Shown here piece by piece: positions 11,425-61,880 of a stretch of DNA of 64,000 nucleotides. The DNA comes from Nanobdellota archaeon (GTDB lineage Archaea > Nanobdellota > Nanobdellia > Woesearchaeales > SKGA01), in NCBI GenBank assembly GCA_051819805.1, contig JBNJHD010000001.1, forward strand, positions 8,962-72,961, read 5' to 3'. The notes below the pieces were generated by a model. The model was given only the letters and a program-made list of their open reading frames with translations, ran no database searches and was not told where the DNA came from. The position numbers were made by a program, and so were the translations under genes. How positions within the stretch are numbered: the first letter of the stretch is position 1; every line of letters begins with the position of its first letter.

Positions 11425-11478
11425 GGTAACTTGCTTTTTTTGGTTCTATATTTTAATAAACCTGTCGGTAAGGTCAAG

Positions 11479-11856: not shown

Positions 11857-11866
11857 GTGTGAAACG

Positions 11867-30572: not shown

Positions 30573-30705
30573 CGTTTTTTTACTTCTTTTGTGTAGTGCG
30601 TATACTTCTTGCTCTTGAAAATTGTCATCCTCTTATCGTCATACTTCGTGAACCAATACTTTTATAAAAGGGTTTAATCCTATCAATTGCAGAGGGTTGA
30701 GTACT

Positions 30706-32499
30706 ATGAACAAAAGGGTGAGTGTAGCACTAGTAATTCTATCATTAGCACTATTATTCACGTTGACATCTGCAGTCGATGCTGCTGAACAACGATCGTT
30801 TGTCATTTCAAATTCAAAAGATTGGAAAGAGATTTATGTCGCTGCAGCATACGCTGGAGTCACTGAAGCTGATTACTTCTTCTTCTTCTCAGATTTGGCG
30901 GATGCTGAGATGAAAACGAAGATGATGACCAAAAACGACATGGTCACTGTATTCGAATCATCGGAACGACCTATTATCAAGAATTATGACTCGCGACTTG
31001 ATGTCAATGGATATGATTTCGTAGCCTCAAACAAATACTCTGATCTCACTGAGTTACAGGAAACAGTCTATGAAATGGTGAATCCTGAAGGTTTCGTTGT
31101 TTTCGGAACAGATTACGGTGTAGAACCTGTTGCGGCATTGCCTTTCCTGATACAAAATAAGTTCACTCCATTCTTTTACACTGAAGACAGTGCAGATTAT
31201 ATACAGAACCAAGCTGAAGAACAACGATCCATCTTTATAGGAAGAATACCTGTGCGTAATTTTGAACTTGATAATAAAGAGACGTTTCTAGGAGGCCCCA
31301 TCCAATCAACTTTTGACGTGACTGAAGAAGTCAATAGAAATATTGCCAGTAGTTGGGGTGTAATGACAAGAATCGACCAGATAGAATTTCAATCGCTTCT
31401 TACCGGAAGGCCGGTATTCCTTCATTTCGGAACGCCGTACATGGAACAACTAGCTCAAATCACTAGAGATAGCGGTATCGAACGGTTTGAAGTCATTGGA
31501 GGAGATATGGTCAGTATTGCACAAGACATCGAATCAGCAACAGGCGAGGATCTCAAATTCATGCTCAAATACGGTCGTAAAGTCACTAACTATGCTCCAA
31601 TGGCAGGAGATTCCATTCTTGATATCGATTCAATAGAGTTACCTCGACCGATTGAGTATCTGAGCATATCCGGAGCGACATATTATCCTGAACTTGACGT
31701 TTTGGCACTGAACATCCACAACCAAGGTAATATTGATGAACTAGTCTATTCGAACATGGAATTCGGCGACGAATCATTCTCTGACGAACAACCGCACCAG
31801 GTGCCAGCACAACAGAATATGACGTTCACCTACACAGTCAATATGTCTGAAGAAACTCCTGAAACAATAATTATCACATCACGATATGGATCTGAGACTC
31901 CTCTCACGATCAATATTGAAGAGAACGGGTCGCAGATCATTGAACAAGATGTTGTTGAAGATCCTTTATTCGAGAATCATAGTCTTCTATTCAATAGTGC
32001 TCGCTTGAATACGGAAAATGGTGACTTAGCTATCTCTATAAAGAATAATGCTTCAAAACAGTTAATATATTATGCAGAACTGGTTATTGATGATGGTGAG
32101 ATCATCAGATCATCAAATATCAATCTCGTGGATTCAGGAGCTGAGGATGAGGTAATTATAGGATTCCCGTACATTCCTAATGACGAATTATTGAACAAGA
32201 CTGTGGAATTGACGCTCCGTTACGGAACAAAAGATACGATACTTACTACATCAGATTCATTTATCATCAAAGCCGATGAACAAACAAGTGATGTTCCTGG
32301 AACTGTAGTAATTGCACTCGCTGTGGTCGCTGTAGTGCTCATACTGCTCTTGTTACTTATCGGCAGGAAAAAGAAGAACTCTTCGGAAAATGATGCTCGG
32401 TCAAAACCTGAAGCATCCTCTAGAAACAAAAAGAAGAGTGCTTCAACGAGGAAGAAATCCTCTTCCTCTTCAAGATCAAAACGGACGAAGAAAAAATGA
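30706..32499 (+). CDS. Secreted surface protein with C-terminal TM anchor and K/S-rich cytoplasmic tail
   Basis: Sec-type signal peptide (VALVILSLALLFTLTSAVDA|AEQ), C-terminal TM (VVIALAVVAVVLILLLLLIG) then RKKKNSSEND...SSSSRSKRTKKK. SD-like AGAGGGTTGAG precedes the ATG at 30706 (track start is TTG at 30697). Confidence 0.5.
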   Translation: MNKRVSVALVILSLALLFTLTSAVDAAEQRSFVISNSKDWKEIYVAAAYAGVTEADYFFFFSDLADAEMKTKMMTKNDMVTVFESSERPIIKNYDSRLDVNGYDFVASNKYSDLTELQETVYEMVNPEGFVVFGTDYGVEPVAALPFLIQNKFTPFFYTEDSADYIQNQAEEQRSIFIGRIPVRNFELDNKETFLGGPIQSTFDVTEEVNRNIASSWGVMTRIDQIEFQSLLTGRPVFLHFGTPYMEQLAQITRDSGIERFEVIGGDMVSIAQDIESATGEDLKFMLKYGRKVTNYAPMAGDSILDIDSIELPRPIEYLSISGATYYPELDVLALNIHNQGNIDELVYSNMEFGDESFSDEQPHQVPAQQNMTFTYTVNMSEETPETIIITSRYGSETPLTINIEENGSQIIEQDVVEDPLFENHSLLFNSARLNTENGDLAISIKNNASKQLIYYAELVIDDGEIIRSSNINLVDSGAEDEVIIGFPYIPNDELLNKTVELTLRYGTKDTILTTSDSFIIKADEQTSDVPGTVVIALAVVAVVLILLLLLIGRKKKNSSENDARSKPEASSRNKKKSASTRKKSSSSSRSKRTKKK

Positions 32500-32618: not shown

Positions 32619-35600
32619 TTGGTCATACTTAAGCGTACTTTAATATTTTTTATGCTGCTTAGTGTGGTGTTGTCGGGCGTAGCACTGACAATAGCTGCAT
32701 CTAGCGGGCAATCTATCAATCTATCTAGTTCTGGGACTCCTGTTTCTATCCGAATACCATCCCTGACTTCTGAAACCTTAGAACTCACCCTCTCAGGCAA
32801 TGAGTATAGTCCTATCGAGACGAAACGAGACCCTATACGCTACAACGATCCGGTCGGATGGCAGCTCATCCTTTCTAACGGCACGACCAACAAGAGTATT
32901 GACTATACCACACCCGAAATAACTGTCGATGAAAGCATTGATACGACTCCCTCGTCATGGCTTGCGACAATCACATTCTCAACACAAGCATCAACGACGT
33001 ACACTGACCTGCCATACACATTTGAAGCACCGACAACAAGAGATATAGCAACGTCCTCGCTTCTCAGTAAACTGTCAGCAGCAAATGACAGTGTAAGTTT
33101 TATACTGCCACAACTTCATTCTGAACGGACTATCATTATCACAGGAGCACTTGGTAACGGGACGTCACGAACTGCAGTGGCGGAAACTCCTGAAGGGATT
33201 TACACGATTGAGTTGAGCAGCGGTATTCCTGAGGAATTCACTGTGCAAAACGCTTCAATTTCAACCAAGCTTGAAGAACTCAGGACTAACCAGACTCTCA
33301 CTATGCATTTACACGCTCCTGTGGCACTTGATTCAGCAACGACATTCTATATCTGGAACCAAAAACAAAGCGAAAAAATTCCTCTCAGCTATTCTCTCGA
33401 ACATAATGGCACGCTGGCAATCATCAATATACCTCCTTCTCTTCTTGAAATGTTGAGCTTGCCAGAAACATCACAATACTTCTACGGGAATCTCGAACTG
33501 GCAATGGATAATGCTCGGTATTTCACATTCACCACGGATAAAGAATTCTACTTCCCTGAAGAGACAGTGACATTTAACATCCTCCCTGAGAATACGTCAT
33601 CGTTCATCTACGTGACGACTCCTTCTGGAGAACCTGAACTTATTACTGGAACAGAATACACTCCGGAAGTTCCAGGAACCTACACTGTTGATGCCTCGCT
33701 CTATCATGAGAATATCAGTGAAGAACAGGCTCTCACATTTGATGTTCTCAATGCCACTCTTGCAAATCAGACTGAGGATGAGATCGTTCTGGAATTCAAC
33801 AATACCTATGAAGGACAGCAAAAGACTATCAGAGCATCAGTCAAGATTCCTGAACATGCTCGAGACGTTGCCCAACAACTCAATACACTAGAGCAAGAAA
33901 TCAACGTCCTGAAGAAACAAGACGAATTATCAGAGTCATTGAATGCTGTTCAACAGGGATTCAGTGCAATGAGCGCATCAACGAATATGATACAGCAATC
34001 AAATGCTCCTGCTTCTGTGAAAGAACAGATTCTTCAGAAACGCCGGCTTCTCACGCAGAAACGAGAAGAGCTCAAAGAACGAGTCAACAATAGAGTAAAT
34101 GCGACAGTCAATCTCGCTAATTCATCCTCAGACAGGGTCAAATCAATCGCATTCAACAACCTGGAAATCAAGAACGACACGATCGATCTCGGATTCAAAG
34201 AAGATGTCGATATCAACGAAGCGACTTCAAGTTTTGCAGTCGATCCAGAACGAATTAATTTCACGAACGCAACTATCACAGTCAATGCGACAGGAAATTA
34301 TCTATACAAGTGTCGCGATTGGAATTTCAGCGGTCAATACTGTCCGGAACCAGTAACTACCTGTACTGGAGTCAAAGGTGTAAATAGGAGTTGCGAGACC
34401 TATGGCGGTTGGAAGAAACTCAAGAAAGTCACACCAGGACAACTCTACACGATTTCCGTAGTACCGAAAGACCCTGCGTATGCAGAGTATGATGCAACGT
34501 ACACTGCACCTTACTGTAACGTGAGCGAGTCACCATGTATCGCTAACTCGAGTGTGCTCATGTCTTCAGGCACATATACTAACCAAAATGAGCCTAACGA
34601 GCCCAATACAGTTGATGCTTGTACTGATGGTGGAAGCGGTACGTATGAGTCAGATGAGTATGTCCAGAATGTCACGATCACCAGTCTCAATAACAGCAAT
34701 TTCCAGACTGGAGACACAGTTAACGTGTCAGCATGGGTTCATATTTGGGGGACTGCTGATGATGTCGTCAACTTCGTTTACGCAAACGATGCATCAAGCC
34801 CGAGTTGGACAGTCAAGGCAGGAGATGTTCCTCTCGATGGAACCGGCTACCAGCAAGTGAGCACGACATTCACGCTTGATGAAGTGGTGGGAGACCATGT
34901 CATACGAGTGCTCAACGAGTATCAAGGAGCGGCAACGACTACCTGTGCAAGCAACGGATACCATGATAACGATGATGTCGTCTTCAAGGTTGATAGGAAA
35001 TTCAATGTAAGTAATGCCCAATATAATTCGACATTCGGAGCACCATACTGTAGTTACGGGGCAAGTCCATGTATTGCGTATTCAGAACTTCTCAAATCAG
35101 CAGGAACATACACTAATCAGGAAGAGCCGAACTATCCGAATACAATAGATGCATGTAGTGATGGTCATAGCGGTACGTATGAAGGTGATGAGTACGTTCA
35201 GAATATAACAATTGAAAGTCTGAATCATAGTACGCTGCAAGCGGGAGACACTATCAATATCACCGCATGGGTGAATGTTTATGATGCTGCAACTGATGTA
35301 GTGAATTTTGTTTACACGAATGATGCATCATCTCCTTCATGGACGGTGGTTGATGGAGATGTTCCTCTCGGAGGAACCGGCTACCAGCAAGTGAGCACGA
35401 CATTCACGCTTGATGAAGTGGTCGGAGATCATGTCATACGAGTGCTTAACGAGTACAACGGTGCAGCAACAACTACCTGTGCAAGCAACGGGTATCACGA
35501 TAACGATGATGTCGTCTTCAAAGTACAACAGGCTGATACAGCTATCAACTGGCTAAATGAAACTTGGAAGTGGAGAATGCCATTCAACATTTCCAATACA

Positions 35601-38600
35601 GCCGGAGATCTTACTGGTTTCCAAGTTCAAGTCAATCTCACGCCTAGCAACTTTGACTTTGAAAAAGCGAACGCAAACCTGAGCGATCTGCGATTCACGT
35701 ATTACGAACCTGATGCACAGACTGAAATCGAGATCCCTTACTATATAGAATCAAATACAAGTCTCGATTATAGCACAGACGCATACACTGCCAATATATG
35801 GATAAGAACTGATTTGGTCAATGATACGAACACCACACACTATGTCTACTATGGAAATCCTGATGCTCAAAGCGAATCGAATGCAAGCGCGGTCTTTGAT
35901 TATTACAATGGTTTCGAAAGCGAAGTGGGATTCACAGATGGTGATCTCACCCTGACCAGAGATACCAATTCATCAAAGAAAGGAGATTTTGGTGTCACAG
36001 GAAATGGCGGTGGCACTCATACTCAGGCATATCGGAGTGGTGTGAATAGTGGTAGGGATGTGATCTTTGAAGTCTGGACGAAGTCATATGATGATGGGGG
36101 AAGCCAGGATACATCCCTTGCCTCTATCGCATTCGGTCATCCTAATGCAGGCGCAACTACTGATGGTTATCAAGCATTCATCGATGAGAGAGACAACGGT
36201 GAAGCATTCGGTCTCAGAGAAAATTATGGTGTTGGAACTCTTACTGCTTCGGCAACACCATTGACATATTATAATACTTGGTACTTCCAACAAGCGATAT
36301 GGAAATCAAATGGAGAGCTCGTCCACAATCTATATGATGAAGATAAGAATCTTCTTGGTTCAATAACAGCGACAGACAACACCTATACGGATGGAGAGTA
36401 CGGTCTCGGTTTGTGGCAGGCAGCACACTTCGATGAGTACAGGGTGCGAAAATACGCAAATCCTACTCCTGGAATAAGCGGTACTGGTGACGGAGAATTC
36501 GTCGGAGTCATAAACGTCACTTTCGACGAACCTACTGATGGTGATAGTACAGATACGTACAACAGCTTCACGATGAACGGTACTGTCGAATGCATCCGAG
36601 GAAATGATTGCGGTAATATCAGTGTCTGGTACCAATACTACACAACAAGCACGCCAACACAATCAATCACCGAGACCACGACAGCAGACTTCGCAAGCTA
36701 TGAGAGTGAATACAACACGTCACAATCAAACGGCAAACTCTATCTGGAGAACAAGAACTCGGAAACCAGCTGGTGGGATGGTCTCTGGCTGTACAGGCAG
36801 AACTTCACAGTCTACAATCCGAACAGCGATACAATCACTGATTATCAAATCAATCTCCAACTGAACAGTTCAAACACGCAAAGCAACTTCCCATGGAGCA
36901 ACTCAGCAGAATTGCGATTCGTCGTGTATGACAATGATACTGGTGACACCACTCTGGTGGATCACTGGGTTGAATCATGGGATCAAAGCGGTCAGAACGC
37001 AAGCGTCTGGGTTGAGATTCCTGAGTTTGAAGCGCTCAATGATACGATACTGCACATATACTATGGGAACAGCGGAGCGGCAGATATCTCCAACGCTTCA
37101 GCAACAATGCTCTATCATGATGATTTTGAGGATGGAAACGATGATGGGTGGACAGAAGAGACAGGGTCGTGGAGTGTCACAAGCGGTGAATACCAACAGA
37201 CGACAGATATCACTGACTATCTCATCTCATCAGCGGGAAGCAGTTCGTGGACAGATTATACGGTAGAAGCTGATATCAACGTGACAAACGATGGATCGAC
37301 ACGACCATTCGCCGGTATCGTGACACGATTCCAAAATACTGATAATTATTATGTGGCTGTGCTTGATGACTCTACAAACCTTGCAATAAGAAATAGGGTC
37401 GGAGGGGCGTGGGATGTTCAGAACGACTACACGATAAGTTTCGATACTCTTGATTGGACGCATTTACGAGTCGATATCTATGATGATGGAGGACAAGATA
37501 CAGTCAAAGCCAGTGTCAACGGCTATACGCATGCACATAATTTTACCAATTTCAACTCTGGAAAAATTGGTCTTTTCACGCACGGCCACCAACCATACTT
37601 CGATAACGTCATCGTAAGGACATTCGCAGAACAAGAGCCGGTCATCACAGCAGGAACTGAAACAACTTTGGAGAGAGCATCACCGGGAGAATATCTCTCG
37701 GACGTGTTTGATACAGGATCATACGATGCTCAGTTCAAAGGAATAACCTGGAATGAAGAAACAGATGCTGACACGACACTCAACATATACACGAGAACAT
37801 CTCCTGATAATGTATCGTGGTCGAACTGGTTCTTAGAAATATCAGGAAATACTATCAGTTCACCAAAGGATAACAGATACATCCAATACAAGGCTGAGAT
37901 GGGCACGACCGATACTCAAAAGAGTCCCTTGCTTGATGATATCACTATCAATTACACTATTTTAAGCAAGTCATGGAAAAATATTTCTTTATCAGGTCAG
38001 ACCTTCACAACATCAAATCCTTATGAATGTGCTGTTCTCAGTGATAATTGCACACCATCATTAACTGTTCTACCAAAAGAGTTTGGTAATTATTCGCTCA
38101 GGTTCTTGGTTGATAATAATGATTATGATATTATCGATACAACAACTGAACCTCATAATATTACAGTATATCTTCAACCATCCTTTTCCTCGTTCACAGC
38201 AACAGTGAATCCGGTATCTATTAACGATACTACTGAACTCTCAGCAGTACTAGTTGATGGATCTTCCCAATCATTATCAGGATATAATATTACTTTCTAT
38301 GATGAGACACATAATGGTACTGACAGGTATGAAATAGGATCGACACTGACTGATGCTTCAGGAGTGGCAACTATTGATTATCAAGTTCCTATTGATGGAC
38401 AGCTCTCGATTCACACGCTCAACGCAAGCTATGCTGGCGACCTATCTGAGTTCAAGAAAGGAATTGAAGTTACTCGTTCTCTTACAGTCTCTTCAACACC
38501 TAAGTTCAATGCTATTTCAGTCAATCCTGAAAATATCGGTTTCGGAAAGAACCTGACAATCGCAGCCAACATCACAGATGCTGTCGGTCTTTCAACAGTC

Positions 38601-41600
38601 AAGATCAACATCACGGACGAATCAGGAACGACAACACAGTATGACATGGCATTATCAGGACAGTTGTACGAATATACATTCCCTGAAAAATGGGAGACTG
38701 AAGAATATGAGTTCATGATTATAGCAACGAATAATGATGGTATAAGATCAATTTCAGAAACTAGATCATTTGCAGTAGATGTCACTGCAGAATTCGATAT
38801 TGTTACTGAGAAGGATGAATATAAGAATGAAGAACTTGTCAATCTTAAACTAGTGAAAGATGGTTGGTATTATCTTGGATGGACACACCGGACTCCAATC
38901 ACTGTTGTAAGCCAGAACAAACTGAAAGACTTCCAGATATCGTTTGAACTAGATGAAGAGAACTTTCAATTCAATCAGGCTAATGCTGATGGAAGCGATA
39001 TACGGGTAACATATCTCAATAAAACTAGTGGAAACGAGGAAACAATTCCTCATTGGATCGACTCATTCAATAGAACGTCAGAAGAAGCAACTATCTGGGT
39101 AAAAACACCTCTTCTGGATGATGCTATTGATAATGTATTCTACATTTATTACGGAAACGATACTGCGACAACGACAAGCAACGGTACAGATACATTTCTC
39201 TACTTCGAAGACTTCGAAGGAACATTTACCTGGACTGACTATGGTTCAGGAAGCGTTGTGAAAGACTCGACAAGGTCATATGACAACACTTACTCCGGAC
39301 ATAAGATCAACAACAACGATCCTAACGGTGCATACGATGATGTTGGTTTCACGTTCGGACGTGATGTCATCATGGAATTCTGGGTGAATAGGAACGCAGG
39401 ATTTACTGGTGGAAACCAAGATAGGGTTGGTTTCATCGATAATAGCGGTAACGGTTATGGATGGGTATTTATCCATAGTGGTTCTGAAATCGCAGCAGAC
39501 AGGCGTGATTCATATACTGGAAGTAATCTTCCAGGAACAACTGCTACTGATTATACTGACACATGGGTCTTCGGTCGGTTCGTGGTCAAATCGAACGGTG
39601 TCGTAGAAGCATACCGATATGTGAATGACACGTTAGCAGGAAGTATGGCAATCACAGATAATACATACAATAGTTTCACACGAGCATATATCTTTGGTGG
39701 AAACGATTACTGGGTGGATGATATCAGGATCAGGAATTATGATGCAGGAGTCATCGAAAAACAATACAAGATGACAGAACAAGGAATCCATGGACTCCTC
39801 AACAAAGGAGATACTGAATTTGAAGGACAACTAAGAATGCTCGTCCAGGAATGGACAGGATCAAGCTGGCAGAATATCATGCCACCTGTTGTTGAAGATG
39901 AATGGACGAATGTCAGCGGATATGAAGCAATCGAACTTTCAGGTCTTTGGGATGCAAAAGGTGCTTGGAACACTTCAAACCGTGATTCAGGAACATACAG
40001 AGTATATGCTATTATGGAAGATCCTTCCTATAATACGCTATACACTACAGATGGTCAACCGCTTATCGGAACGTACAATTTCACGATCATACAATCATCA
40101 GTAGAGCTGGAAAACCTCACTCACGAGAATGAACATGAAGACACGATCAACGAATACGAAACAGGAGATGTCATCGACTGGATCAACGCGACTGTCAAAG
40201 CGTATGACAACACAGCGTACAATGCCTATGTTAACCTCTCACTCTATGATGATTCTAAACAACCTCTTCCATGGGGGCCTCAAGAAGAGCTCAAGAACTG
40301 TGGAACACTGACTGAAGGAAGCACATGCGAACGACAGTGGACGAATTCCAGCAACGGTTACATCATTCCTCAAGATGCAATTGCAGGAACCTACACCTTC
40401 TACTGGAATGTCAAGTCAGATTCCGATAATGGACCTGTCAACATCAACGACTCAACATCATTCACCATCCACAGTGTCCCATCAACAGTCTCAAGTGCTC
40501 TTGAGAAGATCCGTGTAGAAAAACCTAACTCTACACTCTACAACTTCACGTTCACGAACCCTTGGAGCGAATCGCTCACAAGTACGACTGCGACAATCAA
40601 TTGTCCGACGATGAGCGGCTTTGAGTGCGATTCACTCGTGTCAGGAACAAGAACTGAAAATATAGGTACGGTCACTTCTTCAGACACAGTTACGGTACAG
40701 TTCAATGTCTCGGCTAACGAAAGCGTACCATCCGACAACTATAACATCTCAATAGAACTCAATTACACTAACCCTGGTGCTGAAGATAAAAGCTGGTCAG
40801 GACTCGGTGAGCAGATTGTGGAAGTGAGAATCGCAGGTATACTCGAGATTACAGACTTTTACCATCCTAATAATATTACACGAGGTATCACTTATGACTT
40901 TGATTCCCATATGAACAATTCAGCAGATAATACTGCCAATAATGCATGGTTGAACTACACCTTGCCTGCATCATGGCAACTCATCTCAGGAACCTTAAGC
41001 ACAACTTTCGGTAGTCTTGCACCTGGTGAGATCGGTTGGAACAATATCTCTGCACAACCAGAAGCAGATGCACCTCTTGGACCACGTCAAGTGCGTCTCG
41101 ATTCCGGAGCCGATGATGGTAGGTATGATTTCAAGGTATATTCGGTTGATGTGTACGCTCAAACAAATATCAATGCTTCAAAAGATCGTTATATCGTCAA
41201 CAGAGGAGAGAATGTTAATCTTTCAGCAACATTATATTATGACAACTCATCAACTATCAACGGTCAAGAAATCGAATTCGTCGACACGCGAACAGCGACA
41301 ACAATCGGAACTGCAACAACTAACACGAGTGGAGTAGCGACCATCCCTTATTATATCAACTCAACATCTCCGCTTGGAACTCACACAATAAATGTGACTT
41401 TTGATGGTAGCGTGACTGACTATCTCCGTCCAAGCTATAACACCACAGATATCAATATTCATGAAGTACCTGAAATATCGAATATAGTGATTTCTCCAAA
41501 TGTGACCAGCTATGGACAGGACATATGGATTAACGCGACGATAACAGATACTGATGATGTCGATAGCGCATGGTATGAGATCACATTCCCTAACGGCACT

Positions 41601-44600
41601 GCAAAGAATTATTCGATGAACAATATTCCTCCTTCAGACTACTATTCAATATTCAATGATACGTGGCAGAACGGAACTTACTCTATAATCATCTATGCGA
41701 ATGATACAACATCTGCACGATCACAAAGCGAAGAATTATTCATCATCGACAACGCTGATCTGACACTAGGACTCTTGACAGATTATCCTTCTTACGGACA
41801 GAATTCGGATGTCAATCTGCTGCCGACCACTGCAACGACGTGGTGGAATACGAATTACGGATATAAGCGAGTGAGAAATATCACGAACACTGCAGGAAAC
41901 CTGACCGAATACCAATTCTTCATTGAAGAGAACCTGTCACAAGCATATGCAGATGACCTTATCAACGATGATTGTAAGAGTGTGAGGTTCACTTATTATA
42001 ACAGCACTTCAAGAAAAGAAGAGAGAATACCATACTATGTTGATTATTGTAACTTGACCGTCGAAGATAATGCCGGGTTCTGGGTGAAAGTTCCTTTCCT
42101 TGAAAATGATACTGACACGAGAATTTCAATGTATTATGGTAACACGCAAGCGGACTCAGAAAGCAATCTCACTGAAGTATTCACCTATGATACTAGACAA
42201 ACAATAGGTTATGTCGTTTCAGATCTCACTGCAACAAATGGAGTGACGTTGACAGGAATAACTGCTGAAGGGTCGAATGTGCAAGTGGGAGGTTCAGTTT
42301 ATACTATCGGTGAGCTCCAGACAAGAACCCCTGGTACTTTAGAAGTATATGACCCGATCAAAGCAACGAATCCTGTACAAGTCGAAGGAAATGGTGCATA
42401 TGATGGTGTTGTCGTTCCGATATCATGGGCTTCAACAGAGTTCCTGCTCGCAGGAATGAGGGGAACAGAAGATTTCTGTATGCTCAGTCCTTGGGGTGAT
42501 GCTAGTGTTGACATCTATGATGGAAGCAGTGGAACGCCTGAGTGGAGTGGCACTATCAATAACACCGGAAACTGTATCAATAACGATATTACTGAACGGA
42601 ATACCGGACGTATCACTTCGGACAAGCCAATTCTCTTATTCAAGTCAACTTCCGATAGCAATGACGCTTATCCTGTGTATCCGGCTACAGATGAAGACTT
42701 ATATCTCGCTTCACTTTCCAATCAAGGGTATGTGGCTGCGGGAACGACAAGCACGACTGTTGACTTCTACGGAAGCAGTGGTGGAACAGGTTCAGAAACG
42801 ATACAGAATGTTGATGCGAATGCTGCCACTTACCTTACTACTGGAGATTCAGGATCAGGAGATGCAGTACGGTTCTCTGCAGATAATCCTGTAGGAGCTA
42901 TCCAGCAGGCAGACCATGACGGAACCGAATCCAGTGTTGCAGTACCTCGAAAAGAGATGAGTCCTGAATTTGCAGCAGCACATGACGCGCAATATATTGC
43001 TGTAGTGTCTGGCGATCAAGATGTTTCTTGTAGCATTTACGATACGAATGGACTGGTAGCTACAAACACTACAACGGGAAGCATAGCTAATCGTGTCTAC
43101 AAGACCTGCTTCGGCTGTGGCAATGATAATATCTTTGTCAATGGTCCGTGGAAGTTGGAATGTGACAAACCAGTGTGGGCGTATTATGAAGAGAACACTG
43201 ATGATGCGGAAACGAACATGATCAGTTATAAGCAGATGAGAACGAAAGTCTATCCAGAACCTGTAGTTTCAGAAAGTGAAGAACAGCAAGTGGGATCGCA
43301 CATATTCAACGACTTTGAAGATCAGGCATCAGGATACCTCTACCTGACAATCCAGACAAACAACTCAGGAAGCTGGCAACATGTCGATACAGTCGTTGAT
43401 GACATATCAACATCCACAAAAAGGGATATTCCACTCGTCTCAGGTCTCGATCTTTCATCAATATGGAATGCCACTCCGTGGAATACTGCCAATTATGATG
43501 CAGGAACATACAAGGTGTATGGTGAATTAAGGGCTCCTGATGGTTCTGTCCTTGAAAACACTAACGGGTCTGACATCAATGGATACTGGACTTTTACCAT
43601 CGAAGAACCCGATCTCCAACTTGATCTTGATGATATAAGAATATATGATCTTTCAAATACTGATAACTCAAATTGGCATTATTATACGAACGATCTTGAG
43701 GGTTCGGGTCTGAACACAACCTATACTTTAGGAAAAGATAAAATATACAGGGTTGAGGTTGATATACTCAATTCAGGAAGTTCCACATGGGATATCAACG
43801 AGACAGATGTGGATTACAATTATTTGAATAGTGTCTGGCCTGTCAATGAGACAGATGATATATGGTATTCAGATAAAACATCAATCTCCGATCGGAGAAA
43901 CGATGCTACAAAAACAACAGGTTCATTCGATGGGAATGTCTCATGGGATACTCTTGCTGATGATGGTAGCGTGAGTTCCTCAGGAACAGCAACGTTCTTC
44001 TTCATAGTCAACACGAGCACTGAAGAGACAAGACAAGTGAACTTCAATATAGAACACAGCACGTTCATCAAGAGTGATTATTCTACGTGGGAAATTATTG
44101 ATCTTGATGAAGAAATACCTTATATCATCAATGATAATTATAACATCACTACACTTGATATCATCCGAGGTAATGATTTAACCTTATTCGGTCAATGGAA
44201 TGAAGAGATTGATATGGCTAATGCCACCTACTCCACTTCAGGTCCTTCGACATATGTCACCACAACAGACACTAATCCTGGAGGAAACTGGACGAACTTC
44301 ACGATAACAAGCTATCCGACATGGTATCTGGGAGATCATGATGCGAAGCTCACTGCAAAAGACAAGAGCGGTAATGTGAATGACACGCTCGCTTATATTC
44401 CGTTCACAATCTGGGGTCTGGCGCAGATAGAGAGTATGACGTCAGATAACGAACCAGCAACAGAGCAGGAAAACGCAGTCTATGACACAGCTTATACAAC
44501 ACCATATTGTAACTCAACACGTTCACCATGTGTCGCTAACTCGAGCCTGCTCATGTCTTCAAATTCATATACTGATCAAAATGAGCCGAACCAGCCGAAT

Positions 44601-47600
44601 ACTGTTGATGGCTGTGCTGATGGTGGAAGTGGAGGATATGAAAGTGATGAATACGTCCAGAACATCACTATAGAAAGCTTGAACCATACGCTCATCCAAC
44701 GAGGAGACACGGTCAATGTCACAGCAACTGTATATGTTTATGATACCAATTCCGATTTTGTCAACTTCGTCTATGCGAATAACGCGTCAAGTCCAAGCTG
44801 GACAGTCATGGCGGGAGATGTGGCGCTGCCTGGAACCGGCTATCAGCAAGTGAGCACGACATTCAAGCTTGATGATGTATCAGGAGACCATGTCATTCGA
44901 GTCCTCAACGAGTACAATGGAGCAGCAACGACTACCTGTGCAAGCAACGGCTATCACGATAACGATGATGTGGTTTTTACCGTAGCAGAAGAGAATATTC
45001 CATTGCGATGTAAAGTGGTCGATGCGACAGACAGCGATAGTCCTATAGAAAACTATAACGTATCATTCTATAACAATGACGGACTGCTTGACTGGAAACT
45101 GACAGATTCACAAGGATACGCATATTACAGGTATTATGATCAGTCTCCAGGACCTGAAACACTCTCCTGTAAGATAAGAAATGATACAGTCAATTATTAC
45201 AAGACAGACAGCAATAACGAAAGTTCAATCAATATCAACACACTAGAAGATATTCCGCCGACATACTCAAGCGTTTCAGGACCTACGCCGGTACACAAGG
45301 GAGATGTCATTACGCTCTCGACATTATGGCAGGATAACTATCAACTAGACACTGCAACACTCCAGATAAACACGAGCGGAGCATACGTCGATGAAGATAC
45401 TATTGCTCTCTCTGGAAATGAGAGCTGGGCGAACTTCAGCTATACAATCTCTAACTCATTGCTTCCAGGAACCTTCGGGTGGAGACAGATCGCAAACGAC
45501 ACGTCAAAGAATACGAACCAGACTCCTGATCAGACATTAGAAGTGTGGGGATACTCGCGAGTCGATTCTTCATCAATCTCGCCTTCTAGCATCCAGGAGA
45601 CGAACAGCACGACGATGACATGTACAGTGCAAGATGCAGGTGACAACAGTGGACTTCAGGACTATGCAGTCTACTTCTGGTACAAGAACTCAAGTGAAAG
45701 TACATACACGGCTCTCGGTAGCAACACTACAGATGCAAGTGGACAGGCGAGCTACTCGTTTGTCGTTAATACAGCAGCAACATATGATGTGAAATGTAAT
45801 ATCACTGACAATGCAACGCAACAATATAATGTATCAAGTCCTGATAATAGGATTGAAGAACTGAATGTTATCGTAGGTGATGATACCCGACCGCCACAAA
45901 TCATCGGAGAAAACTATACAGTCACACCATCTCTGGTTCACAGAGGAGGCTGCATCGATATTTCAGGATTATGGGATGAAAATATCAGCGAAGCGTACGT
46001 CAGATACAACCAGACATCAACTGAATATACGCAAGTGAACATCTCAAGCCCGTACACTGGCAACTGGACGAACACGACCATCTGCACGAACGAGACATGG
46101 GATCTTGATGACTATACGTTCAAACTATTTGCAAAAGATCTAGAAGGAAATCGTAATGACACGCTCTCCTACAAGACAGTCGCAGTCAAAGGGCTGGCTC
46201 AACTTGAATGGGATGCGCCGACAGGAGACCAGAACAGGACTACGCTGAATGTCAGCTGTAAGGTCATCGATAACGAGACCGCTAACCCTATATCCGGATA
46301 TCCAGTAACGTTCTACGATGGGGATAAAGGTATTTCAATAGGAAATGATGATACGAACGCTTCAGGAATCGCACAGATACAATACGATTACTCGGGAGCG
46401 CTTGTCGGACCTGATGAACTCTCATGTACATTCAGCGATGAACCATCGCTCAACTACGAAACGACAGGATCAACAACTGTCTCAGAGACAATTGACTTCT
46501 ACGGATACCTCAACGCGACAATAGCAACCCCTGTTTCCGACCAGATCCTCCACAGAGGAACTGGAGAGTCGCTAGAGGTAAACGTCGTCGACGAGTTCGG
46601 TAACACGCCGCTTGACCAAAACGGCAACACAGCAGCGCTGTCAGCGATCTGGAGAAACGCTTCTTCAGACCAGATAGCGACAGGTACGACCACTACCTGG
46701 AATGTTCCATCAAGTTACCAGCTCGGAAGCGATACTCTAGAAGTCGATGTCTCTGAGACTTATTATTACCCTGACAACGATAGCCAGAACGTAGAGATAT
46801 GGAGCTATGCGCAAGTGGACTTGACAAGCCCGACTGCAGACACATACGGTGCTGGAGTCAATCTTGATATCAACTGTACCGTGACTGACGAAGCAAGCAC
46901 TGATTCTATTTCCGGCTACGATGTCAACTTTTATGATAATGGGGCCTTGCTCGGCACAGGGACAAGTGATGCCGCTGGAGAAGCGAGCTTGACCGTCAGC
47001 ACGGACACGCTCGGAGATGGCAGTCATGACTTGAGCTGTAACATCAGCGACAATCCTATAAACTATTATGAGGCAGGAGCGAACAAGGAAGATCTCGTCA
47101 GCATAACAGTAGACGGCTCGACACCGGAAATCTCATACGCTGCCAATACGGATACGAACGGAACGTATGACAAGACATGGATACTCGTCAATGTCACGTC
47201 AGTAGAAAGCAATCCTGACACTGCACTGCTCTACTGGAACGGAGTCCCTGAAGAATTCACTTACACGGACGGAACGAACTACTGGGTCAACAAGTCAGTA
47301 CTCTCAGACGGCAATTATGAGTTCTATGCGTACATCAACGATACAGCCGGCAATGAGAACCAGACCGGACTACGGAACGTCACGCTCGATACGACAGCTC
47401 CAGTAGTCACGCTCGACAATCCGCTCAACACGACATACAACACGTCATCATTTGATCTCAATTATACAGTCGTCGAAGAGAATCCTGATACGTGCTGGTA
47501 CAAGATAGACAGCAATCCGAACCAGACGATAGCAGGCTGTTCCAACATCACGATAGGATCGCTCGGCGAGGGAACACATACAGTCGTTATAGCAGCTAGC

Positions 47601-50600
47601 GATACGGTCGGACATGTTGACGAGGACAATGTCACATTCACGATAGACCAGACACTACCACAAGTCACAATAGATAACCCAGTGCTCGGTGTTGAATACA
47701 CTGATAATGATGTCGATCTCAATTACACAGTCAGTGATGACAGGAATGTGGATGAATGCTGGTATAAGCTCAATGGTGGAACCAAAGTCGCCATGCCAAG
47801 CTGCCAGAACACGACACTTACCAGTCTATCAAACGACAACCACACGATAGAAGTCTTCGCTAACGATACGGCAGGAAACATCAACTCATCATCACTCTGG
47901 TTTGAAGTGAACTATAGCGTGCTCACAGCAACACCACTTTATCCCGATAATGATACGATCATTGCCAGTCAGACGATAAATGTCAATGTCACGACGAACA
48001 AGCAGGCGAACGAGTGTAACTACTCTCTTGACGGTGGGGCTTATACTCCGATGACAAACTATACGTTGCTGGACTGGTCAGCATCAGCAGGTCCGCTCAC
48101 TGAATCAACACATAACGTCAGATTTACCTGTACAGATGGTATCAACACGTCAACGACAGATTTGGTCTATTTCACGATCGACGTGACAGGACCGACGATC
48201 ACCTATGAACTACCTACACCGGGAGATGGTGATGGTCGAGGAGTAGATTGGGCGGTTGTCAACGTCACGCTTGACGAACCGGGAGATACAGCGCTGCTCG
48301 AATGGGAGAACAGCACAGCTATCACGAACATCACGATGAACCAGCACAATAGCACCAGCTACTGGTACAACATGTCAGGACTGGCAGATGCGACGTACAA
48401 CTACACAGTCTACGCCAATGACACGATCGGCAACATGAACAACGCTTCAACACGAGAAGTGATCATATCAACAACAGCACCAGTCATACAACTGGATAGT
48501 CCGACAGCACAGGAATACACGACTAGTGTTATCGATCTGAATGTGAGTTCGAACATGGAAATTGATGAATGGTGGTATGAGTTCAATGGACGTAATTTCT
48601 CACTGATACCTAACACCACTATCACTGCAGAAATGAACGAGAATAAAATTACTGTCTATGGTAATGATACTTTCGGAAATATAGGAAATGAAAGCGTCAC
48701 GTTCATTGTGAATGCGACATCCTGGACGGATGACTTCACTGGACTCACAGGAATTTCCAGTAGCAGTAATGTAAAAACCGGAGGGGCTGCTCAGATCGAT
48801 CCGTGCTGGCCACTCTATCACGAAGAGGACAGTGACGACTATAACAGGGATACGTGCTGGCATTATCGAAAACCAGTAACAATAAGCGCGTCATCGCAGC
48901 TTAAAGACTACCAGATGCTACTCAACATCGACTTGAGCACTGAATACTCGCAAGGAAAACTACAGGATAACTGTGAAGACCTCAGATTAAGCTATTACAA
49001 CAGCACGAGCGGCGATGACCAGAAGATCAGTCACTGGATAGAAGATTGCAGCGACAAGAGCAACATCAGCGTGTGGGTCAAATCACCGCAGATAGACACT
49101 AGCTCGACAACACTGCATGCCTATTATGGAAATGACCGGGCAGGAGATAGTTCCAACGGAACGGCAGTCTTTGAGATGTTTGATAACTTCAACACAGTCT
49201 CATCGACGGACTGGGGAAGCAATGCAGCTAACTGGAACACTGAAAAAGGAGTGGCGTATCCGACTGTATCAGGATCAAGCTCCCGACTCACTCACGACTA
49301 TTCATTCGGCAGCACTTACGCAACAGAACTCTATATGAAAGCGAACGCGACAAGCGGTTCAGCAGGTTACTACGGACTTGGTAACGGTGCAGGAACAAAG
49401 TATTTACGACTCTATCTTGAACCGTCAAATAATAGGGTAAGTCTCTACAATGGAGCGAATAATTACTACTCTCTCGATTCAGGATCGTACCAGAAATACA
49501 CTATCATCTCAGACTATACGAATGATGAATACAAACTGCTCATCAACAATTCACAAACAGCACTTGATCTCTCATCAGCAGCATCATCAAGTACATCGTC
49601 GCCCACGTTCTATTCATACTATACTAACGGTCTTTATCTTGATCACATAGCGATAAGGAAGTATGCAGGTAATACTCCTTCCATGGATGCTATTGGTGCT
49701 GAACAGCAACCGACAGTCAATGGATCAGTGGAAAGCATTGTCGTCAAACCTCTCGAACTCTATAGTTGGGATACGTTTTCAGCAACAGTAAATACTCCTG
49801 GAACGACCAGTCTCACCTTCCACCTACTTAATGAATCGGGAAGCGATCTCTGTGGTGACATCTCTGAAGCACAGATAACAAGCGGTTATGAAGTCTGTAG
49901 CGCTGCAAACTCATATGATAGTATTGTTCTTCAGGCAAACTTGACGACAGCTTCATCATCCGAAACACCGCAGATAGACTCATGGACCATCAACTGGAGC
50001 GAAACAATAACGACACAACCTGATCTCATCATCAATTCGATAAACTTCACGCCAGAAAGGTTCATCGAGAACAAGAACGTGACTGTCAATATCAACGTGT
50101 CAAACAACGGAAGCGCGGACGCAGGAGAATCAACAGTTAGGCTCAATGTCTTGCTCTGGAAAGGGAGCAGGATTCTCAAGAAAACATACGAAGAGAATGT
50201 GACTTTACCAGTAGGAGCGTCGACAATCGTCAGCTTCAACTGGACAGCAGCCATAGGAACGCACATCTTTGACGCGTATGCCGATGCAGATAATGTTATT
50301 CTCGAAAGCAATGAGACAAACAACAACCTCACAGTCAACGGTTCCACGTCAGCATGGCAGACGTTCTACGGGAACTACAGCTATACCTACTTCCTAGGAG
50401 ATGCTGATAATAGGAGTTACATGAACTGGTCAAACTTCGTCGCAAAAGGAAACATATACTATTCAGATGTGGATGCCAGCTACTATCCATTCGACCTGCA
50501 ACCGCTTGACGGAACGAACGACTTCACAGAAGCGGATACAGCACTTGGCATGACATACTTCAACGATTCCATCAGTAAAGAATTCGACAGCAATAATGAT

Positions 50601-50888
50601 GGAACAGCTGACCAGACAAGCACGTTCAACATAGGAGGGACACAGGTCGCGAATGTACCGGTCATCAACTCGACCGATGCAGGAACATTCATCACAGGAA
50701 TCCTCTGGGACAGCGCTGATGGCGGAAGCGAATACGACGGAAGCCAGGATCTGGTCATCATCACGAAACTCAACGAATCGACAGCAGGAAAATACGGTAC
50801 GTATGATTTCGAAGCGAGAGTGCCGGTACTGCTCAGGAACCAGACCGGAAATATACATCAACTGGAGCGATATGATGAATTGCAATAA
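32619..50888 (+). CDS. Giant (6,089 aa) secreted multidomain surface glycoprotein/adhesin-like protein
   Basis: Uninterrupted 18.27-kb ORF with SD (GGGGTGAG) plus TTG start and signal peptide. Contains 5 DUF2341-like modules each followed by LamG-like regions, three ~180-aa Cys-containing modules, Ig-like repeats and a C-terminal CARDB-like domain. Hundreds of NxS/T sequons. Confidence 0.8.
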   Translation: MVILKRTLIFFMLLSVVLSGVALTIAASSGQSINLSSSGTPVSIRIPSLTSETLELTLSGNEYSPIETKRDPIRYNDPVGWQLILSNGTTNKSIDYTTPEITVDESIDTTPSSWLATITFSTQASTTYTDLPYTFEAPTTRDIATSSLLSKLSAANDSVSFILPQLHSERTIIITGALGNGTSRTAVAETPEGIYTIELSSGIPEEFTVQNASISTKLEELRTNQTLTMHLHAPVALDSATTFYIWNQKQSEKIPLSYSLEHNGTLAIINIPPSLLEMLSLPETSQYFYGNLELAMDNARYFTFTTDKEFYFPEETVTFNILPENTSSFIYVTTPSGEPELITGTEYTPEVPGTYTVDASLYHENISEEQALTFDVLNATLANQTEDEIVLEFNNTYEGQQKTIRASVKIPEHARDVAQQLNTLEQEINVLKKQDELSESLNAVQQGFSAMSASTNMIQQSNAPASVKEQILQKRRLLTQKREELKERVNNRVNATVNLANSSSDRVKSIAFNNLEIKNDTIDLGFKEDVDINEATSSFAVDPERINFTNATITVNATGNYLYKCRDWNFSGQYCPEPVTTCTGVKGVNRSCETYGGWKKLKKVTPGQLYTISVVPKDPAYAEYDATYTAPYCNVSESPCIANSSVLMSSGTYTNQNEPNEPNTVDACTDGGSGTYESDEYVQNVTITSLNNSNFQTGDTVNVSAWVHIWGTADDVVNFVYANDASSPSWTVKAGDVPLDGTGYQQVSTTFTLDEVVGDHVIRVLNEYQGAATTTCASNGYHDNDDVVFKVDRKFNVSNAQYNSTFGAPYCSYGASPCIAYSELLKSAGTYTNQEEPNYPNTIDACSDGHSGTYEGDEYVQNITIESLNHSTLQAGDTINITAWVNVYDAATDVVNFVYTNDASSPSWTVVDGDVPLGGTGYQQVSTTFTLDEVVGDHVIRVLNEYNGAATTTCASNGYHDNDDVVFKVQQADTAINWLNETWKWRMPFNISNTAGDLTGFQVQVNLTPSNFDFEKANANLSDLRFTYYEPDAQTEIEIPYYIESNTSLDYSTDAYTANIWIRTDLVNDTNTTHYVYYGNPDAQSESNASAVFDYYNGFESEVGFTDGDLTLTRDTNSSKKGDFGVTGNGGGTHTQAYRSGVNSGRDVIFEVWTKSYDDGGSQDTSLASIAFGHPNAGATTDGYQAFIDERDNGEAFGLRENYGVGTLTASATPLTYYNTWYFQQAIWKSNGELVHNLYDEDKNLLGSITATDNTYTDGEYGLGLWQAAHFDEYRVRKYANPTPGISGTGDGEFVGVINVTFDEPTDGDSTDTYNSFTMNGTVECIRGNDCGNISVWYQYYTTSTPTQSITETTTADFASYESEYNTSQSNGKLYLENKNSETSWWDGLWLYRQNFTVYNPNSDTITDYQINLQLNSSNTQSNFPWSNSAELRFVVYDNDTGDTTLVDHWVESWDQSGQNASVWVEIPEFEALNDTILHIYYGNSGAADISNASATMLYHDDFEDGNDDGWTEETGSWSVTSGEYQQTTDITDYLISSAGSSSWTDYTVEADINVTNDGSTRPFAGIVTRFQNTDNYYVAVLDDSTNLAIRNRVGGAWDVQNDYTISFDTLDWTHLRVDIYDDGGQDTVKASVNGYTHAHNFTNFNSGKIGLFTHGHQPYFDNVIVRTFAEQEPVITAGTETTLERASPGEYLSDVFDTGSYDAQFKGITWNEETDADTTLNIYTRTSPDNVSWSNWFLEISGNTISSPKDNRYIQYKAEMGTTDTQKSPLLDDITINYTILSKSWKNISLSGQTFTTSNPYECAVLSDNCTPSLTVLPKEFGNYSLRFLVDNNDYDIIDTTTEPHNITVYLQPSFSSFTATVNPVSINDTTELSAVLVDGSSQSLSGYNITFYDETHNGTDRYEIGSTLTDASGVATIDYQVPIDGQLSIHTLNASYAGDLSEFKKGIEVTRSLTVSSTPKFNAISVNPENIGFGKNLTIAANITDAVGLSTVKINITDESGTTTQYDMALSGQLYEYTFPEKWETEEYEFMIIATNNDGIRSISETRSFAVDVTAEFDIVTEKDEYKNEELVNLKLVKDGWYYLGWTHRTPITVVSQNKLKDFQISFELDEENFQFNQANADGSDIRVTYLNKTSGNEETIPHWIDSFNRTSEEATIWVKTPLLDDAIDNVFYIYYGNDTATTTSNGTDTFLYFEDFEGTFTWTDYGSGSVVKDSTRSYDNTYSGHKINNNDPNGAYDDVGFTFGRDVIMEFWVNRNAGFTGGNQDRVGFIDNSGNGYGWVFIHSGSEIAADRRDSYTGSNLPGTTATDYTDTWVFGRFVVKSNGVVEAYRYVNDTLAGSMAITDNTYNSFTRAYIFGGNDYWVDDIRIRNYDAGVIEKQYKMTEQGIHGLLNKGDTEFEGQLRMLVQEWTGSSWQNIMPPVVEDEWTNVSGYEAIELSGLWDAKGAWNTSNRDSGTYRVYAIMEDPSYNTLYTTDGQPLIGTYNFTIIQSSVELENLTHENEHEDTINEYETGDVIDWINATVKAYDNTAYNAYVNLSLYDDSKQPLPWGPQEELKNCGTLTEGSTCERQWTNSSNGYIIPQDAIAGTYTFYWNVKSDSDNGPVNINDSTSFTIHSVPSTVSSALEKIRVEKPNSTLYNFTFTNPWSESLTSTTATINCPTMSGFECDSLVSGTRTENIGTVTSSDTVTVQFNVSANESVPSDNYNISIELNYTNPGAEDKSWSGLGEQIVEVRIAGILEITDFYHPNNITRGITYDFDSHMNNSADNTANNAWLNYTLPASWQLISGTLSTTFGSLAPGEIGWNNISAQPEADAPLGPRQVRLDSGADDGRYDFKVYSVDVYAQTNINASKDRYIVNRGENVNLSATLYYDNSSTINGQEIEFVDTRTATTIGTATTNTSGVATIPYYINSTSPLGTHTINVTFDGSVTDYLRPSYNTTDINIHEVPEISNIVISPNVTSYGQDIWINATITDTDDVDSAWYEITFPNGTAKNYSMNNIPPSDYYSIFNDTWQNGTYSIIIYANDTTSARSQSEELFIIDNADLTLGLLTDYPSYGQNSDVNLLPTTATTWWNTNYGYKRVRNITNTAGNLTEYQFFIEENLSQAYADDLINDDCKSVRFTYYNSTSRKEERIPYYVDYCNLTVEDNAGFWVKVPFLENDTDTRISMYYGNTQADSESNLTEVFTYDTRQTIGYVVSDLTATNGVTLTGITAEGSNVQVGGSVYTIGELQTRTPGTLEVYDPIKATNPVQVEGNGAYDGVVVPISWASTEFLLAGMRGTEDFCMLSPWGDASVDIYDGSSGTPEWSGTINNTGNCINNDITERNTGRITSDKPILLFKSTSDSNDAYPVYPATDEDLYLASLSNQGYVAAGTTSTTVDFYGSSGGTGSETIQNVDANAATYLTTGDSGSGDAVRFSADNPVGAIQQADHDGTESSVAVPRKEMSPEFAAAHDAQYIAVVSGDQDVSCSIYDTNGLVATNTTTGSIANRVYKTCFGCGNDNIFVNGPWKLECDKPVWAYYEENTDDAETNMISYKQMRTKVYPEPVVSESEEQQVGSHIFNDFEDQASGYLYLTIQTNNSGSWQHVDTVVDDISTSTKRDIPLVSGLDLSSIWNATPWNTANYDAGTYKVYGELRAPDGSVLENTNGSDINGYWTFTIEEPDLQLDLDDIRIYDLSNTDNSNWHYYTNDLEGSGLNTTYTLGKDKIYRVEVDILNSGSSTWDINETDVDYNYLNSVWPVNETDDIWYSDKTSISDRRNDATKTTGSFDGNVSWDTLADDGSVSSSGTATFFFIVNTSTEETRQVNFNIEHSTFIKSDYSTWEIIDLDEEIPYIINDNYNITTLDIIRGNDLTLFGQWNEEIDMANATYSTSGPSTYVTTTDTNPGGNWTNFTITSYPTWYLGDHDAKLTAKDKSGNVNDTLAYIPFTIWGLAQIESMTSDNEPATEQENAVYDTAYTTPYCNSTRSPCVANSSLLMSSNSYTDQNEPNQPNTVDGCADGGSGGYESDEYVQNITIESLNHTLIQRGDTVNVTATVYVYDTNSDFVNFVYANNASSPSWTVMAGDVALPGTGYQQVSTTFKLDDVSGDHVIRVLNEYNGAATTTCASNGYHDNDDVVFTVAEENIPLRCKVVDATDSDSPIENYNVSFYNNDGLLDWKLTDSQGYAYYRYYDQSPGPETLSCKIRNDTVNYYKTDSNNESSININTLEDIPPTYSSVSGPTPVHKGDVITLSTLWQDNYQLDTATLQINTSGAYVDEDTIALSGNESWANFSYTISNSLLPGTFGWRQIANDTSKNTNQTPDQTLEVWGYSRVDSSSISPSSIQETNSTTMTCTVQDAGDNSGLQDYAVYFWYKNSSESTYTALGSNTTDASGQASYSFVVNTAATYDVKCNITDNATQQYNVSSPDNRIEELNVIVGDDTRPPQIIGENYTVTPSLVHRGGCIDISGLWDENISEAYVRYNQTSTEYTQVNISSPYTGNWTNTTICTNETWDLDDYTFKLFAKDLEGNRNDTLSYKTVAVKGLAQLEWDAPTGDQNRTTLNVSCKVIDNETANPISGYPVTFYDGDKGISIGNDDTNASGIAQIQYDYSGALVGPDELSCTFSDEPSLNYETTGSTTVSETIDFYGYLNATIATPVSDQILHRGTGESLEVNVVDEFGNTPLDQNGNTAALSAIWRNASSDQIATGTTTTWNVPSSYQLGSDTLEVDVSETYYYPDNDSQNVEIWSYAQVDLTSPTADTYGAGVNLDINCTVTDEASTDSISGYDVNFYDNGALLGTGTSDAAGEASLTVSTDTLGDGSHDLSCNISDNPINYYEAGANKEDLVSITVDGSTPEISYAANTDTNGTYDKTWILVNVTSVESNPDTALLYWNGVPEEFTYTDGTNYWVNKSVLSDGNYEFYAYINDTAGNENQTGLRNVTLDTTAPVVTLDNPLNTTYNTSSFDLNYTVVEENPDTCWYKIDSNPNQTIAGCSNITIGSLGEGTHTVVIAASDTVGHVDEDNVTFTIDQTLPQVTIDNPVLGVEYTDNDVDLNYTVSDDRNVDECWYKLNGGTKVAMPSCQNTTLTSLSNDNHTIEVFANDTAGNINSSSLWFEVNYSVLTATPLYPDNDTIIASQTINVNVTTNKQANECNYSLDGGAYTPMTNYTLLDWSASAGPLTESTHNVRFTCTDGINTSTTDLVYFTIDVTGPTITYELPTPGDGDGRGVDWAVVNVTLDEPGDTALLEWENSTAITNITMNQHNSTSYWYNMSGLADATYNYTVYANDTIGNMNNASTREVIISTTAPVIQLDSPTAQEYTTSVIDLNVSSNMEIDEWWYEFNGRNFSLIPNTTITAEMNENKITVYGNDTFGNIGNESVTFIVNATSWTDDFTGLTGISSSSNVKTGGAAQIDPCWPLYHEEDSDDYNRDTCWHYRKPVTISASSQLKDYQMLLNIDLSTEYSQGKLQDNCEDLRLSYYNSTSGDDQKISHWIEDCSDKSNISVWVKSPQIDTSSTTLHAYYGNDRAGDSSNGTAVFEMFDNFNTVSSTDWGSNAANWNTEKGVAYPTVSGSSSRLTHDYSFGSTYATELYMKANATSGSAGYYGLGNGAGTKYLRLYLEPSNNRVSLYNGANNYYSLDSGSYQKYTIISDYTNDEYKLLINNSQTALDLSSAASSSTSSPTFYSYYTNGLYLDHIAIRKYAGNTPSMDAIGAEQQPTVNGSVESIVVKPLELYSWDTFSATVNTPGTTSLTFHLLNESGSDLCGDISEAQITSGYEVCSAANSYDSIVLQANLTTASSSETPQIDSWTINWSETITTQPDLIINSINFTPERFIENKNVTVNINVSNNGSADAGESTVRLNVLLWKGSRILKKTYEENVTLPVGASTIVSFNWTAAIGTHIFDAYADADNVILESNETNNNLTVNGSTSAWQTFYGNYSYTYFLGDADNRSYMNWSNFVAKGNIYYSDVDASYYPFDLQPLDGTNDFTEADTALGMTYFNDSISKEFDSNNDGTADQTSTFNIGGTQVANVPVINSTDAGTFITGILWDSADGGSEYDGSQDLVIITKLNESTAGKYGTYDFEARVPVLLRNQTGNIHQLERYDELQ
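34498..35570 (+). repeat. Tandem intragenic duplication (2 x ~540 bp) encoding a Cys-containing ~180-aa module; the 3' ~150 bp of each copy is >90% identical at nucleotide level
   Basis: GGAACCGGCTACCAGCAAGTGAGCACGACATTCACGCTTGATGAAGTGG...GATAACGATGATGTCGTCTTCAA recurs at 34839-34990 and 35378-35530. Protein copies YTAPYCNVSESPCIANS...VFKV and APYCSYGASPCIAYS...VFKV. Confidence 0.8.
44488..44990 (+). repeat. Third dispersed copy of the same ~180-aa module / 150-bp near-identical nucleotide core, ~9.5 kb downstream in the same gene
   Basis: GGAACCGGCTATCAGCAAGTGAGCACGACATTCAAGCTTGATGA...GATAACGATGATGTGGTTTTTAC at 44833-44985. Protein YTTPYCNSTRSPCVANS...VVFTV. Confidence 0.75.
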
Positions 50889-52130: not shown

Positions 52131-52138
52131 GATTGAAT

Positions 52139-53788: not shown

Positions 53789-53831
53789 ACGCTTATGGCT
53801 GGACAATAGGTAAAAGAGTGTGAGTGCAAAC

Positions 53832-55625: not shown

Positions 55626-55661
55626 ATGCATTTTCATCACATTCAGTAGGGGTTTTATGGG

Positions 55662-59761: not shown

Positions 59762-59805
59762 TACTATACATTCATTACTAAAGGCAAAAAATAAGAGGTG
59801 GTCAT

Positions 59806-61782: not shown

Positions 61783-61880
61783 ACCACTGTGGAGAAGTAG
61801 CACAGCTTTAAAAATGAATACTTCTCAGGAATTGAAATAAGAGAGTGTTATGATATAATGATCAATCTAATTATTGGGGT

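Follow-up and report, generated by a model that had tools for sequence, protein, structure and literature searches.

Partial gene conversion as a probable source of similar domain cores in a giant gene of a DPANN-type archaeon

The window analysed here, a 64-kb stretch of contig JBNJHD010000001.1, contains a giant gene that carries three copies of a four-cysteine module, the last third of which is unusually similar among the copies at the DNA level. The gene is a single uninterrupted open reading frame (ORF) at 32619-50888 on the forward strand, with a TTG start and 6,089 encoded residues. Its product has a signal- or transmembrane-like N-terminus that aligns with its counterpart in another genome (P0001, described below), an isoelectric point (pI) of 4.1, and 223 NxS/T sequons. 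Pfam domains in the protein include five DUF2341 stretches, CARDB, and several immunoglobulin (Ig)-like (Big) domains. From its sequence, the giant protein is predicted to be secreted or surface-located.

Self-comparison of the giant gene yields a single substantial repeat family, the module, which occurs three times and always in frame. Each copy spans 510 nt and 170 residues in an ungapped register, with cysteines at C12, C19, C47, and C155. All three lie on the forward strand: module A at 34482-34991 (residues 622-791), module B in tandem with it at 35016-35525 (residues 800-969) with a start-to-start distance of 534 nt, and module C at 44475-44984 (residues 3953-4122), 9,459 nt downstream of B from start to start. 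A preliminary description of the window had reported two tandem copies and a third about 9.5 kb away, each a four-Cys module ending in ...VIRVLNEY(N/Q)GAATTTCASNGYHDNDDVVF, and both statements agree with this layout.

The DNA similarity is highest in a 156-nt core (module codons 119-170), which corresponds to the last three predicted beta-strands and lies on the forward strand at 34836-34991 in A, 35370-35525 in B, and 44829-44984 in C. Core DNA identity is 89.7% between A and B, 84.6% between A and C, and 85.3% between B and C, whereas codons 1-118 (the N-part) are only 63-70% identical among the modules. The preliminary description had placed the copies in the right regions, with B and C a few nucleotides out of register, and had correctly described the surrounding module sequence as diverged. 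Its figure of more than 90% identity is approached by A-B and overstated for both pairs with C. At the protein level, the three cores are 88-96% identical. Most of their mismatches are synonymous changes at third codon positions (14/16, 17/24, and 17/24, or 70-88%), and every substitution type is represented; all 16 differences between the A and B cores fall after codon 135. The longest exact match joins A and B over 50 nt (34839-34888 and 35373-35422) within what appears to be a younger sub-tract, and it would be the longest potential substrate for recombination. The longest A-C run is 26 nt (34932-34957 and 44925-44950), and B and C share no exact run of more than 22 nt (35385-35406 and 44844-44865).

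Synonymous divergence was estimated by the Nei-Gojobori method for the core and the N-part of the same modules. For the core, the proportion of synonymous differences (pS) lies at 0.35-0.43, the synonymous substitution rate (dS) at about 0.47-0.63, and the nonsynonymous rate (dN) at 0.03-0.08; the corresponding N-part values are a pS of 0.70-0.75, a saturated dS, and a dN of 0.22-0.32. Each module is thus a mosaic at silent sites. In sliding windows, pS reaches its minimum at codons 109-144 (0.11-0.20 for A-B, about 0.3 for A-C, and 0.33-0.47 for B-C) and climbs to about 0.5 at the 3′ end of the module, and the low-pS tract starts around codon 109-114, ahead of codon 119 where the core begins. 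The GC content at third codon positions (GC3) of the B core is 0.50, like that of A (0.54) and unlike that of B's own N-part (0.29).

The excess identity of the core is greater than chance or protein constraint produces. In a first null model, the amino acids were held fixed, codons were redrawn from the gene's own usage in 3,000 simulations, and the best 52-codon window was scanned; the best window had a mean identity of 0.750 +/- 0.015 (maximum 0.806), as against 0.876 observed (p about 3e-4). A second null model, which shuffles codon columns only between positions that carry an identical invariant residue, yields p = 0.001. For A and B, an unbroken stretch of 21 synonymous-capable codons is identical (p = 8e-4). 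The preliminary description had proposed that the identity goes beyond what purifying selection on codons would leave, and the simulations agree.

A scan of a genome collection with window-only patterns, a metagenome scan, and a word-indexed protein search with module A returned no matches, and no exact protein record exists for the four window genes that were looked up. The best match to a profile of the three modules is P0001, a protein encoded on a 13.7-kb contig (L001) of a Nanobdellota metagenome-assembled genome (MAG). The gene order upstream of the giant gene is common to the window and L001 (DS, ODC, arginase, GatD, GatE, an unknown gene, and then the giant gene), and P0001 and the window protein align collinearly along about 1,100 residues at 46% identity, with two tandem modules of P0001 (P1A and P1B) at the same positions. 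P0001 is a positional ortholog of the giant protein.

Comparison with P0001 separates similarity in protein from similarity in DNA. The P1A core shares 79-81% of its residues with the window cores, but the DNA identity is only 67-69% and pS is 0.85-0.90; across all comparisons of the window copies with P1A and P1B, core identity is 0.65-0.69 in DNA and 0.67-0.81 in protein. The window cores are therefore closer in DNA to their paralogs than to their orthologs. In the N-part, pS is 0.70-0.76, the same within and between genomes. Because the ortholog core is alike in protein and not in DNA, neither protein selection nor a conserved nucleotide element accounts for the identity within the window.

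The two segments of the module also give incongruent trees. In neighbour-joining bootstrap analysis of the N-part, A and C of the window group with P1A in 81% of replicates, and A groups with B in 8%. In the core, A and B group together in 99%, and a cluster of A, B, C, and P1A appears in 85%, with P1B outside, so that the core of B is A-type by phylogeny.

These observations are best explained by a lineage-specific partial intragenic gene conversion, a form of concerted evolution, that homogenised the 3′ third of modules A, B, and C, and the analysis holds this explanation to be probable with good confidence. In the proposed sequence of events, the giant gene of a DPANN-related (Nanobdellota-like) archaeon would have held three paralogous copies of an Ig-like or carbohydrate-binding-module (CBM)-like beta-sandwich domain. 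After the split from the lineage of the MAG ortholog, non-reciprocal homologous recombination would have overwritten the segment from codon ~109-119 to codon 170, which encodes the last three strands. All three cores would then have carried one A-type sequence, with B's original B-type core replaced and C homogenised too. The cores would since have gained about 0.5 synonymous substitutions per site, and a shorter A-B tract (about codons 114-136) would have been converted again more recently. The low-pS profile is read here as an old three-way homogenisation overlaid by this younger A-B tract. The process may have been RadA-dependent conversion without crossover, with A-type sequence as the donor.

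Gene conversion and unequal crossing-over had both been suggested in the preliminary description, as recent events. The former is upheld by the synonymous mosaic, by the ortholog core that is alike in protein and not in DNA, and by the switch in topology. The pattern can be explained without the latter and does not indicate it, because the two tandem modules occupy a matching position in the ortholog. The main event appears old rather than recent because core dS is about 0.5; only the A-B sub-tract, with its 50 exact nucleotides and 21 identical codons, looks younger.

Several other processes could produce similar DNA in repeated domains. Purifying selection on a constrained C-terminal peptide, together with codon bias, would require no recombination, and it fits both the high protein identity of the cores and the predominance of synonymous, third-position differences; identical residues alone give about 75-80% nucleotide identity under the first null model. 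It is nevertheless improbable, since the observed identity lies above every amino-acid-fixed simulation and the ortholog core combines about 80% protein identity with a DNA identity of only 67-69%. Across 223 module instances of the wider family, the core and N-part carry 2.30 and 2.25 bits and have paralog identities of 0.51 and 0.50; the core is not specially conserved there, so the near-identical cores of the window do not reflect a family-wide constraint. Core codons are also no more preferred than those of the N-part, with codon adaptation index (CAI)-like values of 0.71-0.76 and 0.72-0.74, respectively. A recent duplication of the whole module, followed by fast divergence of the N-part under diversifying selection while the core stayed constant, would account for the several-fold higher dN of the N-part, and similar repeats arise most often by duplication (PMC5120217). 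This history is judged very unlikely: the N-part is saturated at synonymous sites, which protein selection cannot cause, the A-B tandem is already present at the same position in the ortholog, and the N-part of A groups with P1A and not with B. Alternatively, the core might be an element that functions at the nucleotide level and is maintained at three sites, for instance a structured RNA, a recombination signal, or a regulatory site inside the gene. The restriction of excess silent-site identity to a block of roughly 150 nt is what such an element would produce, but the idea is highly improbable given that the folding z-scores of the cores (-0.2, -0.5, and +1.2) are no better than those of shuffles or N-part controls, that the giant gene has no Rfam match, and that the orthologous cores lack DNA conservation. 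Overlapping ORFs across the cores were rejected as candidates, as the ORFs in the other frames and on the opposite strand are short and inconsistent in length. Diversity-generating retroelements (DGRs) are known in DPANN archaea, and the repeat size (about 150 nt), the identity (about 85-90%), and the host clade resemble their pairs of template and variable repeats (TR/VR). The chance that the cores belong to a DGR or another form of programmed mutagenesis is close to negligible, as the mismatches are not adenine-specific and lie mostly at third codon positions, each of the three copies is coding sequence inside the gene, and no reverse transcriptase domain was found among ORFs of at least 150 residues in the window.

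An artefact of assembly or polishing, in which reads of one copy were mis-recruited and the consensus was partly homogenised, is among the points that weigh against the conversion account, since repeats are prone to consensus mixing and the assembly may be metagenomic. It is most unlikely, because 10-15% of sites remain different among the cores, in a codon-aware pattern (synonymous, at third positions) that is the signature of real evolution, and the reading frame is intact over 18 kb. Four further observations count on the same adverse side. The pairs with C are not significant when tested individually (max-chi2 p = 0.33 and 0.16; run tests p about 0.3), so support for conversion of C comes from pS, the joint window-scan nulls, and the contrast with the ortholog. 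The metagenome and genome scans supplied a single ortholog, and the contig that encodes it stops short of module C. The assignment of P1B as the ortholog of the B N-part relies on position and a few signature residues, with a bootstrap value of only 43%. Finally, the giant genes differ strongly in GC3 (0.43 at 32619-50885 of the window versus 0.22 at 9945-13663 of L001), so that silent sites compared between genomes show only an absence of conservation; the in-gene N-part was therefore taken as the main baseline. The genome fragments likewise differ in GC content (0.43 for the window versus 0.36 for L001), yet their deoxyhypusine synthases are 92% identical in protein.

Conversion between module copies may also have occurred in a giant gene of the same family in another DPANN MAG (contig L003). 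There, a 650-nt tract is 100% identical between 9528-10177 and 10920-11569, which lie in two module copies 1,392 nt apart, and its flanks are only 50-70% identical. The tract stems from either a fresh conversion or an artefact of assembly comparable to the one considered for the window; in the former case, it suggests that module copies in genes of this family undergo conversion repeatedly.

The modules contain a second patch of low pS at codons ~13-48 (34518-34625 in A, 44511-44618 in C, and L001 ~11841-11948). Its pS is 0.30-0.37 between A and C and 0.37-0.54 between A and P1A, though silent sites are otherwise saturated between the genomes; the sample is small.

Homogenisation of repeats within proteins has been described as species-specific, and gene conversion or unequal crossing-over has been proposed to drive it (Persi, Wolf and Koonin 2016, PMC5120217). 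By the operational criterion used in that work for concerted evolution, the window core is an exact case. It differs from the published cases in that homogenisation is confined to one third of each repeat, which leaves a mosaic, and in that one copy lies about 9.5 kb away, so the set is not one contiguous array. DPANN-type archaea, to which the host of the window belongs, were not sampled in that study. The window thus adds a new host and a new gene to an already known type of process, and the case is one of ordinary, expected evolution. Partial conversion between dispersed domain copies is documented here in a DPANN giant gene with an ortholog as control, which is useful background when interpreting the repeat architecture and assembly of DPANN giant surface-protein genes.

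Giant proteins of nanohaloarchaeal "SPEARE" type offer a second comparison. Related strains of the organisms that carry them differ by a 529-residue block of tandem Ig-like domains (PMC10266531). Domain-block length change therefore does occur in DPANN giant proteins. Like the SPEARE-type proteins, the window protein is acidic (pI about 4), apparently secreted, longer than 5,000 residues, and composed of Ig-like or lectin-like domains, and it likewise belongs to an archaeon with a small genome. Unlike them, it has no VirB4/TraG-like ATPase among the Pfam matches of either half, and its domain set consists of DUF2341, CARDB, and the unannotated four-Cys module. A further difference is that the housekeeping proteins of the window are not acidic, which indicates that the host is not a halophile.

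In length-variable bacterial surface antigens of the alpha C/Rib type, the repeats are nearly identical over the whole unit and their copy number varies between strains. As in those antigens, the in-frame repeats of the window could recombine to lose or gain units. The window modules differ from them in being 63-70% identical outside the core and in having the same A-B copy number in the ortholog. The core spacings of 534, 9,459, and 9,993 nt each preserve the reading frame, and exact runs of 50, 26, and 22 nt are present. As the preliminary description had proposed, the cores could thus in principle mediate RadA-type in-frame deletions, which would remove 178, 3,153, or 3,331 codons. The ortholog keeps the two-module tandem across a deep divergence, an argument against frequent fixation of length changes at A-B.

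A more ambitious proposal is that selection keeps the cores similar as in-frame recombination cassettes, which would constitute a recombination-based system of surface variation in Archaea. This is regarded as a doubtful proposition with little chance of being correct. If it were true, an episymbiotic DPANN archaeon could shuffle or delete blocks of about 0.5 kb or about 10 kb of a host-contact protein across its population, and conversion tracts in other family members, such as that on L003, would reflect a shared strategy.

The module itself belongs to a broader family. A profile of the three copies finds 1,153 representative proteins at E ≤1e-3 and 163 at E ≤1e-30, many of them archaeal giant proteins or bacterial multi-domain proteins with 1-5 copies each, and 150 family proteins were fetched (P0001-P0150). 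The family consensus is ...EPNxPNT(I/L)DxCxDG..G.Y..DES...YDD.DDLVF.V. Searches of the 170-residue module against Pfam, NCBIfam, and PDB sequences gave only noise (E ≥0.01, each in a single member). AlphaFold run on the 3-sequence alignment was uninformative, with a predicted local distance difference test (pLDDT) score of 54, and an AlphaFold2 model of the module predicts a beta-sandwich domain with confidence. Scores against Ig-like or CBM-like beta-sandwiches, namely the beta-sandwich domains of glycoside hydrolase family 2 (GH2), the Wzt carbohydrate-binding domain, and fibronectin type III (FnIII), are generic for the fold. These matches have no counterpart of the Cys-rich N-terminal 60 residues of the module, and the module is not related in sequence to any PDB chain. 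The four-Cys module thus appears to be a widespread domain family without annotation that would merit a family definition, and a domain family with a confident structural model is a more reusable result than the conversion patch.

The last ~100 residues of the giant protein (residues ~5985-6089; window ~50570-50885) follow the pattern ...NVPVINST..G.F.TGILWDS.DG...Y...QDLV.IT..N....GKYGTYDFE..VP..L, which also ends many otherwise unlike family members, e.g., P0002, P0004, P0006, P0007, P0009, P0013, and P0018. This segment resembles a conserved domain for anchoring or sorting at the terminus.

The giant gene is flanked by further co-directional genes. Directly upstream, an ORF of 600 residues at 30697-32499 on the forward strand, without a Pfam match, has a syntenic counterpart at 8092-9774 of L001 (48% amino acid identity), and its product may be a partner of the giant protein. 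Immediately downstream, four forward-strand ORFs of 382, 553, 601, and 862 residues occupy 50982-58250, the first two overlapping by 4 nt. They have no significant Pfam match, and the 862-residue ORF shows only a sub-threshold similarity to NPCBM_assoc; the four and the giant gene may make up one operon.

A chemotaxis cluster at 58730-63887 on the forward strand encodes CheB, CheA, and a Cache/HAMP methyl-accepting protein. The nearest syntenic relative of its contig is the Nanobdellota (DPANN) MAG, and chemotaxis genes would be unusual in the Nanobdellota. Elsewhere in the window, a tRNA of 122 nt lies at 3057-3178 on the forward strand. It scores 39.7 bits with Rfam and was missed by ARAGORN, and it is consistent with an intron-containing archaeal tRNA.

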